Assembly (NCBI GenBank): GCA_035510235.1
Contig: DATKHM010000047.1
Coordinates: 1-29,052 of the forward strand
Source of the DNA: Minisyncoccota bacterium
Lineage (GTDB): Bacteria; Patescibacteriota; Minisyncoccia; UBA6257; 2-01-FULL-56-20
Direction: 5' to 3'
Length of the DNA: 29,052 nt
The notes below the pieces were generated by a model. The model was not told the DNA's origin, made no database searches, and was given only the letters and a program-made list of their open reading frames with translations. Positions 24,065 through 24,318 of the stretch are shown here, one piece after another (position 1 is the first letter of the stretch; each line of letters starts with the position of its first letter). Made by a program: the position numbers and the translations under genes.

Positions 24065-24092
24065 TTGACATCCTGCGGTAGAAGATTATTAT
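24065..24092 (+). promoter_or_regulatory. Promoter of the anti-tRNA small RNA
   Basis: TTGACA(24065-70)-N16-TATTAT(24087-92); predicted +1 about 24098-24099. Confidence 0.75.
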
Positions 24093-24097
24093 TATAA

Positions 24098-24183
24098 GCG
24101 AAGCAGGAGTGAGTCCGTATTGACACAGGCCTCATGTTCCCTACTTGGCATAAAAATAGCCATCGAAATGGCTATTTTTATTT
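24098..24183 (+). ncRNA. Small RNA complementary, in permuted order, to nt 1-46 of the neighbouring tRNA
   Basis: GCGAAGCAGGA pairs tRNA TCCTGCTTTGC; CCGTATTGAC pairs GTCCATATGG; ACAGGCCT pairs GGGCCTGT; TTCCCTACTTGGCA pairs TGCCAAGTAGGGGA; own promoter and terminator. Confidence 0.75.
24151..24183 (+). terminator. Intrinsic terminator of the small RNA
   Basis: TAAAAATAGCCAT-CGAA-ATGGCTATTTTTA, 13-bp perfect stem, T-rich tail. Confidence 0.8.
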
Positions 24184-24246
24184 GTCCGGCAGTTTTTAAG
24201 ATAGTTTTAATCGTCTTTGCGTTATGGTCGTCATGCCCGTGAACCT

Positions 24247-24318
24247 GGGCCTGTCGTCCATATGGTAGGATCCTGCTTTGCCAAGTAGGGGAAAGGGGTC
24301 CGAGTCCCCTCAGGTCCA
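24247..24318 (+). tRNA. Atypical tRNA: Ala-type acceptor stem, non-canonical anticodon loop (UUGCCA 6 nt or UUUGCCAA 8 nt)
   Basis: Acceptor GGGCCTG/CAGGTCC with G3:U70 and A73; D stem GTCC/GGAT; anticodon stem CCTGCT/AGTAGG; T arm AGGGG-TCCGAGT-CCCCT; U15/A48, C55; CCA not encoded. Confidence 0.8.

Follow-up and report, generated by a model that had tools for sequence, protein, structure and literature searches.

A permuted antisense small RNA and an alanine-type tRNA-like RNA form a protein-free two-RNA cassette in Patescibacteria

The stretch of DNA analyzed here, referred to throughout as the window, comprises 29,052 nucleotides (nt) from a Minisyncoccota bacterium (GenBank contig DATKHM010000047.1) and contains, at positions 24043–24323, a compact cassette of two RNA genes on the plus strand. 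A consensus promoter is followed by a small RNA (sRNA) of about 53 nt and its terminator, and these are followed by a second promoter and a transcript made up of a leader, a transfer RNA (tRNA)-like RNA derived from tRNA-Ala, and a trailer. We refer to the precursor of the tRNA-like RNA as gene 1 and to the sRNA as gene 2. The individual features are compiled in Table 1, where promoters, transcription start sites (+1), transcript ends and terminators are predictions. The original prediction for this locus was of an independently transcribed sRNA that is a permuted antisense copy of the adjacent tRNA. The sRNA promoter that it described, TTGACA and TATTAT separated by 16 nt, was found as given, and the tRNA that it placed at 24247 was recovered by ARAGORN (24247–24319, with the anticodon reported as '??') and by the Rfam tRNA model (36.6 bits, with a gathering score of 29). 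The sRNA terminator is present as well, with a stem that is not 13 base pairs (bp) as first stated but a perfect 14-bp pairing of 24150–24163 with 24168–24181, followed by a T run. A minus-strand open reading frame (ORF) that crosses the cassette at 24092–24325 has no Pfam match, and a small peptide encoded within the sRNA was rejected, as the ATG at 24134 is not conserved among the copies described below.

Table 1. Predicted features of the cassette and its immediate surroundings in the window.
Feature	Position	Strand	Details
A-tract element ATTAAAAAGTTATTAAATAGTTT	24042–24064	+	Upstream of the sRNA promoter; in all type-1 copies; six copies from the same genome aligned
sRNA promoter	24065–24092	+	−35 TTGACA, 16-nt spacer, −10 TATTAT; 11/12 consensus matches
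sRNA 5' seed	24098–24108	+	Pairs with 24271–24281 (anticodon-stem 5' strand and 5' half of the loop)
sRNA middle	24115–24132	+	Antisense to 24247–24265 (5' acceptor strand, positions 8–9, D-arm)
Linker between segments A and B	24133–24136	+	Unpaired; sequence differs among copies
sRNA 3' segment (B)	24137–24150	+	14 bp with 24279–24292
Intrinsic terminator of the sRNA	24150–24187	+	14-bp stem, 4-nt loop, T run
tRNA-like promoter region	24195–24228	+	Motif TTTAAGATAGTTTTAATCG, 9-nt spacer, −10 TATGGT (24223–24228)
5' leader GCCCGTGAACCT	24235–24246	+	24235–24240 pairs with trailer 24318–24323
tRNA-like RNA, tRNA-Ala-derived	24247–24318	+	G1-C72, G3:U70, A73 (24318), anticodon-like UGC, C37, T-loop UCCGAGU
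3' trailer CAGGC	24319–24323	+	Partner of the leader
Bidirectional terminator	24324–24362		17–18 bp; common to the cassette side and the convergent rplT gene

In the window copy the sRNA pairs with positions 1–46 of the tRNA-like RNA in permuted order. Segment A (24098–24132) forms blocks of 11, 6, 3 and 8 bp with 24247–24281, and both RNAduplex and RNAcofold reproduced these blocks as they had been proposed. The 14 bp of segment B, one of them G:U, can be read directly off the sequence. They take in the anticodon and the 3' half of its loop, continue along the 3' side of the anticodon stem and reach the beginning of the variable loop. The two segments overlap on TGC at 24279–24281, as originally described. 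The accompanying picture of two free sRNA ends has to be given up: the 3' end is not free at position 24150 but runs directly into the terminator hairpin, and this continuity weakens the suggestion that the tRNA might splint circularization of the sRNA. Local antisense scoring of the two RNAs gives a best value of 44, versus 19.6 ± 3.8 (maximum 38) in 1000 shuffles (z = 6.4), which ranks first when 5,762 windows of 60 nt from the two strands of the 29-kb stretch are scored.

The assembly to which the window belongs, a 0.6-Mb Paceibacteria genome, contains at least eight related copies, of which six have the standard layout (contigs C47, C66, C1, C28, C79 and C48) and two are variants (C61 and C57). 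The front part of a standard copy consists of the A-tract, a promoter of the form TTGAC-N16-19-TAnnnT, an RNA of about 46 nt and a terminator of unrelated sequence, and the rear part of the motif TTTAGATAGTTTTAAT, a TAnnnT box 11 nt further on, the leader, the tRNA-like RNA and the trailer. Copies arranged in this way are present in other genera too. More than 75 copies in approximately 40 genomes were examined in all; covariation within the tRNA-like RNA was assessed over 75 aligned copies, and its features were counted over 59 parsed copies, 48 of which have a 7-nt anticodon loop. These counts are taken over related copies and are not phylogenetically independent.

The pairing between the two RNAs is specific to the individual cassette. 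In two-segment local alignments the cognate tRNA-like RNA was the best of 29 for 23 of the 29 sRNAs, with a score of 64.9 on the cognate diagonal versus 45.0 ± 7.6 off it. When positions 34–45 were scored without gaps in 46 copies, 10.8 of the 12 positions were paired with the cognate sRNA versus 8.05 with non-cognate ones, and 87% of the cognate pairs lay above the 95th percentile of the non-cognate distribution. The columns of this region are 83–100% paired with three to six pair types each; positions 26–33, the target of the sRNA 5' seed, are 87–93% paired with two to six pair types, and the D-arm and 5' acceptor columns are 59–98% paired with the middle of the sRNA. RNAduplex energies calculated on long flanks (−47 versus −38 kcal/mol) ranked the cognate partners poorly, and the alignment scores above, local and ungapped, were used in their place. 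Four-way coordinated changes, involving both strands of the stem and both segments of the sRNA, are displayed by three orthologous cassettes (C48, G019:C1b and G011:C1), so that stems of the ACGCC/GGCGU, AUGCC and ACACC types each come with matching changes in the opposite strand and in the sRNA, and a change of anticodon from UGA to UAA is accompanied by a change from UUGUCG to UUGUUA. Read on the transcribed plus strand, the alignments of the two RNAs contain 200 G:U and 60 A:C combinations, an excess that would be expected when both partners are plus-strand RNAs. The two RNAs also co-occur without exception, since an sRNA lies beside all 58 tRNA-like RNAs for which enough upstream DNA is available (51 by the automatic criterion and seven by eye). 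Homologous loci thus have both the upstream complementary RNA and the compensatory changes that the original prediction called for, and the covariation of each sRNA with its own partner over more than 50 diverged copies, together with the excess of G:U, bears out its preference for selected RNA-RNA pairing over the scar of a DNA inversion. At the level of sequence comparison, selection acting on RNA to maintain the pairing is supported.

The sRNA gene is defined by its position and pairing rather than by its sequence. Of 41 parsed copies, 38 have the TTGAC-N16-19-TAnnnT promoter in the corresponding position, ending 5–8 nt before the partner of anticodon position 34, so that the predicted +1 falls on the anticodon. 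The sRNA is about 45–55 nt long in the family, and in 31 of 46 automatic parses its segments follow the order antisense to the anticodon-stem 5' strand, to the D-arm and acceptor, and to the anticodon-stem 3' strand; in the others the middle part, which pairs weakly, was placed at a spurious offset. The linker between the segments is 4–7 nt long and varies in sequence, as does the terminator hairpin, which occupies the same place in every copy with a different sequence each time, and no conserved sequence was seen outside the antisense parts of the aligned copies. Promoter and terminator are conserved as predicted elements, in keeping with the proposed independent transcription of the sRNA. 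Folded alone, the sRNA forms a stem from its two ends that mirrors the anticodon stem. It matched no family in Rfam 15 at the gathering score or at E ≤ 10, and its partner matched only 'tRNA'.

Gene 1 has a promoter of a different kind. In the window this region (24195–24228) is without a TTGACA-type −35 element, and its motif and the TAnnnT box (T32, A33 and T37) are invariant in family alignment A2. Within the genome the motif occurs almost exclusively before tRNA-like RNAs and is absent from the ordinary tRNA genes. A copy of TTTAGATAGTTTTAAT also lies, on the minus strand at C79:13363, before a gene whose protein product begins with a signal-peptide-like segment, so the motif is a type of promoter that is used outside the cassette as well. 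The A-tract element ATTAAAAAGTTATTAAATAGTTT is found in other genera as well, and positions 24042–24058 within it are 76% complementary over 17 nt to 24195–24211 of the motif, giving an imperfect inverted repeat that brackets the sRNA gene; both arms are kept across genera and may represent a shared protein-binding site or a relic of mobility. In copies from other families and one other class (L304–L311 and L328) the loop of the sRNA terminator contains TTGCAA, TTGAAA or TTGTAA 17–18 nt upstream of a TATGAT or TATAAT box, and with this −35-like hexamer in its loop the terminator of gene 2 would double as the −35 region of gene 1. A double-promoter layout is also present without a tRNA-like RNA at G000:C24:1–330 (minus strand), where an A-tract and TTGAC promoter, a 24-nt RNA and a terminator are followed by the motif TTTAAAAAGGATTTAAT and a protein-coding ORF (MLFHYVAADEAGK...).

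The tRNA-like RNAs adopt the fold of a canonical tRNA-Ala, and covariation supports the 7-bp acceptor stem as well as the D, anticodon and T arms. The cloverleaf together with the outer helix between leader and trailer is 92% paired, versus 78.7% in shuffles and 35–46% when the partner columns are slid, and changes on both sides occur at 23 of the 27 pairs. The Ala identity elements are retained almost throughout (G3:U70 in 58 and A73 in 56 of 59 copies). At 2:71, where the Ala set has G2:C71, 58 copies have G:C and five have G:U. The acceptor stem of the copies in this genome is that of the resident tRNA-Ala(UGC), GGGCCTG/CAGGTCC, and differs from that of transfer-messenger RNA (tmRNA); the genuine tRNA-Ala genes lie elsewhere, on C82 and C57. 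A GG in the D-loop accompanies U55 in the T-loop in 16 copies, and 34 copies combine AG with G55; there is a single exception (not corrected for phylogeny), and this tracking indicates that the elbow of the L-shaped molecule is kept. With cloverleaf, elbow, G3:U70 and A73 all retained, alanyl-tRNA synthetase (AlaRS) should charge the tRNA-like RNA. The helix between leader and trailer shows compensatory changes at all six of its pairs and is 94.8% paired. A conserved GGA in the leader can alternatively form 3 bp with U70–C72 (86% paired), so that the precursor could choose between the tRNA fold and a leader-bound fold. A degenerate relative at G000:C82:661–784 has the leader-trailer helix, the GGGCCTG/CAGGTCC acceptor stem and the T arm; its D and anticodon arms are replaced by unrelated sequence, and no sRNA was seen upstream.

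The anticodon arm is the region in which the tRNA-like RNAs depart from a canonical tRNA-Ala, which has a 7-nt loop with U33, an NGC anticodon, a purine at 37 and a closed 31–39 pair. The loop is 7 nt long in 48 of 59 copies, and in these U33 is found in 46, A38 in 45 and C37 in 38. At 31–39 there is a C·A mismatch in 22 copies and U:A in 19, and over the full alignment this pair is open in 40 of 75. The triplets at positions 34–36 of the 48 copies are UGA (14), UGC (9), UAC (7), UGG (6), CGA (4), UAA (2), CGC (2), UUG (2), UGU (1) and UAG (1), all of them within one or two changes of the Ala anticodon UGC, and 37 of the 48 are non-Ala anticodons. ARAGORN accordingly labels these genes tRNA-Ser, tRNA-Val, tRNA-Gly or undetermined. 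The window copy is 1 nt short in this arm and has no position 31, which leaves a loop of 6 or 8 nt depending on how it is drawn.

The cassettes are distributed patchily. A covariance model spanning the motif through the trailer (R1) matched strongly, with 60 bits or more, in about 25 of the 101 family genomes, with 1–12 matches per genome and sometimes in tandem, and also in five genomes from four other families of the same order. With a second model (R2), cassettes verified by eye were found in 8 of approximately 146 class-level genomes outside the order and in 1 of 144 genomes from other classes of the phylum; over the class as a whole the share of carriers is a few percent. R2 cannot tell cassettes from genuine tRNA-Ala below about 70 bits, and those of its matches that scored 55–68 bits proved to be true tRNA-Ala genes with no sRNA. 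Divergent forms escape the census models, which are also unable to detect orphan sRNAs. Tandem arrays of two or three cassettes within 1–2 kb are present at G135:C30:1160–2033, G093:C22:15754–16924 and G119:C34:1868–3837. In relatives with 80–85% identical PolX the order NUDIX-rplT is kept and the site is empty, with just a terminator hairpin in a gap of 107–146 nt versus 308 nt in the window. Since close relatives have just such a hairpin between NUDIX and rplT, the bidirectional terminator in the window is by this comparison older than the insertion of the cassette. None of the neighbors in the window (NUDIX, rplT, rpmI, infC and PolX) recurs within the 1.5-kb flanks of the fetched cassette loci, where there was one weak MFS match, and an all-against-all BLAST of the ORFs in 38 cassette loci revealed no recurring neighbor protein. 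Judged by the empty sites in relatives and by flanking genes and proteins that are not shared among loci, the cassette is accessory and relocating, and it is non-syntenic, multicopy, patchy and never split. A phage origin was considered and rejected: a 14-mer of the promoter motif matches more than 118 viral contigs, none of the 80 that were fetched has a cassette, and the matches are chance occurrences in AT-rich DNA.

Two variant cassettes in the same genome, G000:C61:5779–5990 (L026:280–490) and G000:C57:1700–1920 (minus strand), have the same motif promoter and place the tRNA-like RNA first, with the sRNA gene downstream behind a TTGACA-N17-TATTAT or TTGACA-N17-TACTAT promoter. The sRNA of these variants is an unpermuted antisense that runs from approximately position 42 back to the D-arm, with its 5' end covering the anticodon arm; ARAGORN calls the tRNA-like RNA of the C57 variant tRNA-Val(tac). 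The permuted order originally described thus holds for the window copy but is not an essential trait of the system.

The reading that we consider somewhat better supported than not is that the sRNA acts as an antisense lock on its cognate partner, a tRNA mimic that would accept Ala, and that the two form a self-contained, protein-free cassette that behaves as an accessory element of a toxin–antitoxin (TA)-like or defense-like kind. A distribution that is patchy, multicopy and mobile, with the two genes never split, suits such an accessory element better than a housekeeping RNA. The sRNA would begin to pair either at the anticodon loop, where this is exposed, or with the 5' half of its partner during synthesis, and would keep the partner from the tRNA fold, so that the partner would not be matured by RNase P, charged or used. 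RNase III would probably degrade the resulting duplex, and release of the lock would free an Ala-charged tRNA mimic; genes for RNase III and AlaRS are both present in the genome. In RNAcofold calculations the heteroduplex is favored over two separate folds by 7.6 kcal/mol on average (in 95% of copies; −56.3 versus −46.1 kcal/mol for the window copy), and by 14.7 kcal/mol when the first 46 nt of the partner are taken alone, which fits capture of the nascent transcript. The sRNA may serve as a safety catch on a potentially mistranslating tRNA, a role that fits the conservation of the features read by AlaRS and the ribosome, the drift of the anticodon to Ser, Val, Pro and Leu, and an sRNA that is never absent.

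Several observations weigh against this lock, or at least against its simplest form. Segments A and B would cross in a two-strand diagram, and with a linker of only 4–7 nt they cannot both pair in one straight 46-bp duplex; we infer that the complex is branched or that the segments act in turn. The two-directional unfolding from the loop that was first envisaged is plausible as far as seeding goes, with the predicted +1 on the anticodon, but not as a single linear helix containing A and B together. The computed energies ignore the tertiary structure and modifications of tRNA. The tRNA fold, elbow included, is itself under strong selection, so the free form of the tRNA-like RNA must matter. The Ala anticodons UGC or CGC are found in 11 of the 48 copies, and these would not mistranslate. 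The window copy, with UGC, is one of them, so that the mis-decoding tRNA originally suggested does not apply to this copy, while it does suit the many paralogues with Ser, Val, Pro or Leu anticodons. The combination of C37 with a weak 31–39 pair might abolish decoding altogether. The sequencing runs that contain the window sequence are DNA metagenomes from permafrost and peat, with no RNA run listed among them. A positive role for the sRNA, taken up below, would also compete with the lock.

A more specific version of the lock, which we regard as a serious but distinctly less probable proposal, is an RNA-only addiction or abortive-infection cassette in which the poison is an Ala-charged tRNA with a non-Ala anticodon and the antidote its private, unstable anti-tRNA sRNA. 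The tRNA-like RNA would poison the proteome by bringing Ala to Ser, Val, Pro, Leu or Thr codons, or by shifting the reading frame by virtue of C37. The outcome would be programmed Ser/Val/Pro/Leu-to-Ala mistranslation or frameshifting, and the sRNA would read the anticodon like a codon and unzip the tRNA from the loop. The Ala identity set is conserved while the anticodon lies one or two changes from UGC, AlaRS ignores the anticodon and tRNA-Ala anticodon variants mistranslate (PMC11415595), the tRNA-like RNA was never seen without the sRNA, and the distribution is that of a patchy, multicopy, non-syntenic element in a genome that also has consensus promoters convergent on a weak MazF-like gene and an NYN-domain gene. 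The copies with cognate Ala anticodons do not fit, and a pyrimidine at 37 with a C·A mismatch at 31–39 should make a poor decoder; post-segregational killing would not follow from a block of nascent folding alone. If the sRNA instead acted positively, as a folding chaperone or as a guide for RNase III, RNase P, another nuclease or a modification, the active species would be a half-molecule or the matured tRNA. The covarying leader-trailer helix and the alternative pairing of the leader with U70–C72 hint at regulated maturation of this sort, and selection is seen on the tRNA fold as well as on the pairing with the sRNA. We nonetheless think it improbable, given an sRNA without a box C/D-like or H/ACA-like motif or anything conserved beyond its antisense parts, a pairing with positions 1–46 that is incompatible with the substrate shape for RNase P and AlaRS, and the lack of a dedicated enzyme gene near the cassettes.

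Less probable again is a carrier or competitor that does not decode, either an Ala donor to cell wall or lipids or a mimic that titrates AlaRS, EF-Tu, SmpB or ribosomes, with the sRNA simply tuning its supply. Conserved Ala identity and elbow beside an abnormal position 37 would agree with this, and a phage tmRNA reduced to its tRNA-like domain is known to inhibit the tmRNA of its host (DS6A; PMC11915505). The acceptor stem, however, is that of the resident tRNA-Ala and not of the resident tmRNA, whose T-loop is UUCGAUU and not UGCAAAU; a conserved U33 in a 7-nt loop with a varying anticodon resembles a decoder; no FemAB-type Ala transferase was found in the genome (82% complete); and a housekeeping donor should be syntenic, which the cassette is not. 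We give very little credence to a feature of the DNA itself, such as an inversion scar or recombination repeats, or to the reverse assignment in which the sRNA is the effector and the tRNA-like RNA its sponge. The two genes are indeed inverted partial copies of each other, and the imperfect repeat of 24042–24058 and 24195–24211 brackets one of them, but complementarity is kept even though the stems differ at most positions among copies, the excess of G:U over A:C belongs to the transcribed strand, the plus-strand promoter and terminator are conserved, and the unpermuted variant sits downstream of its partner. A sponge would further call for conserved sRNA sequence outside the antisense parts to serve other targets, and none is there.

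To our knowledge, tRNAs are not known to have dedicated antisense regulators. The cassette, in which an Ala-identity, tRNA-shaped RNA and an sRNA co-evolve inseparably across many genera and bring no protein with them, thus represents a new relation between RNAs. If the tRNA-like RNA decodes, the cassette would be a natural switch for deliberate mistranslation and the first TA-like system with a tRNA toxin, and the addiction version, if true, would make it a TA class spread across Patescibacteria; if it does not decode, it would be a new regulated tRNA mimic. In practical terms the cassettes offer compact orthogonal RNA pairs whose rules of specificity can be read from natural covariation, and they affect the tRNA annotation of candidate-phyla genomes, in which ARAGORN calls them ordinary tRNAs or undetermined.

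Other features of the window lie outside the cassette. A weak PemK/MazF-like ORF at 9302–9823 on the minus strand (20.4 bits, below the cut-off) faces a convergent consensus promoter at 9306–9333 on the plus strand, and a NYN-domain ORF at 11473–11967 on the plus strand faces another at 12054–12027 on the minus strand; both are possible RNA-antitoxin arrangements. A standard tmRNA is located at 26930–27238 (to 27240 by Rfam) and encodes the tag ANSKVAAPSFAFA. Its 3' end is overlapped by a large serine recombinase gene on the minus strand (27170–28768), with Resolvase and zinc-ribbon recombinase domains, and this overlap suggests an element integrated at ssrA.

No published description of the cassette was found in the full-text literature searched, and in this respect the original prediction, which knew of no such system, agrees with both the literature and Rfam; a bipartite, permuted antisense sRNA paired with an Ala-type tRNA-like RNA in a protein-free cassette is apparently undescribed. 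A number of known systems were compared and set aside. The cassette is not a tmRNA, as the Rfam tmRNA model matches only 26930–27240 in the window and the acceptor stem and T-loop of the resident tmRNA differ, nor did the UGCAAAU T-loop come from one, the resident tmRNAs of six genomes having UUCGAUU or UCCGAUU. Split or permuted tRNA genes such as those of Nanoarchaeum and Cyanidioschyzon, whose sense-strand halves yield one tRNA by way of a bulge-helix-bulge motif, do not apply, since the permuted piece here is antisense and lies on the same strand as a complete tRNA-like gene. A T-box leader, with its specifier codon in stem I and an antiterminator for the tRNA 3' end ahead of a regulated gene, is contradicted by the pairing, which covers positions 1–46 and not the 3' end, by the lack of a downstream coding gene and by the lack of an Rfam T-box match at E ≤ 10. 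Type I and type III TA systems, in which the RNA antitoxin controls a protein toxin (a small membrane peptide or an endoribonuclease), were rejected in view of the absence of a conserved ORF in the cassette and of a conserved neighboring protein, and box C/D (RUGAUGA and CUGA) or H/ACA guide RNAs because the aligned sRNAs conserve no boxes of either kind.

The tmRNA family, including two-piece forms and those reduced to the tRNA-like domain, shares Ala identity with the cassette, and gene permutation and two pairing RNA pieces both occur there. Unlike tmRNA, the cassette RNA lacks a tag ORF and folds as a complete cloverleaf in which a D stem and an anticodon arm are present, and unlike the second piece of a two-piece tmRNA, the second cassette RNA is antisense and not a complementing half. 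The reduced tmRNA of phage DS6A interferes with translation quality control by inhibiting host tmRNA (PMC11915505). In 3'ETS-leuZ sponges a tRNA transcript and an sRNA likewise pair in trans; there a pre-tRNA spacer absorbs RyhB and RybB, whose real targets are mRNAs, whereas in the cassette it is the body of the tRNA-like RNA that is covered, by an sRNA given over to it along its entire length.

Mistranslating tRNAs, namely tRNA-Ala anticodon variants in humans, the CUG-Ala yeasts and bacterial tRNAProA, resemble gene 1 in combining an Ala body (G3:U70, A73) with non-Ala anticodons and in arising when a tRNA gene is duplicated and its anticodon then changes. They differ from the cassette RNAs, which have C37, a weak 31–39 pair, the leader-trailer helix and, in most copies, a T-loop with G55. 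We know of no mistranslating tRNA that has a dedicated antisense RNA. Mismatches between identity and anticodon have been documented in such tRNAs, bacterial tRNAProA among them (PMC11415595, PMC10404621), AlaRS ignores the anticodon, and both engineered and natural tRNA-Ala anticodon variants mistranslate (reviewed in PMC11415595).

The closest parallels in architecture are systems in which one RNA controls another. As in type VIII TA systems (SdsR/RyeA and CreTA), both components are RNA, the unit is compact and accessory, and the putative antitoxin would act by base pairing; the type VIII layout of two adjacent RNA genes, one complementary to the other, is what the cassette has. We know of no type VIII member with a tRNA as its toxin. 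CreA needs Cascade and SdsR and RyeA overlap in cis, which distinguishes these examples from the cassette, whose toxicity is hypothetical. With the antisense pairs ColE1 RNA I/RNA II, R1 CopA/CopT and hok/sok the cassette shares an antisense RNA that has its own strong promoter and terminator next to a single target, specific, co-evolving pairs and, on the proposed reading, recognition at an exposed loop that spreads into the stems. It differs from them in that its target is tRNA-shaped and not an mRNA or primer, its antisense gene does not overlap the target, its antisense RNA is bipartite and circularly permuted, and it comes with neither a protein nor a replicon.

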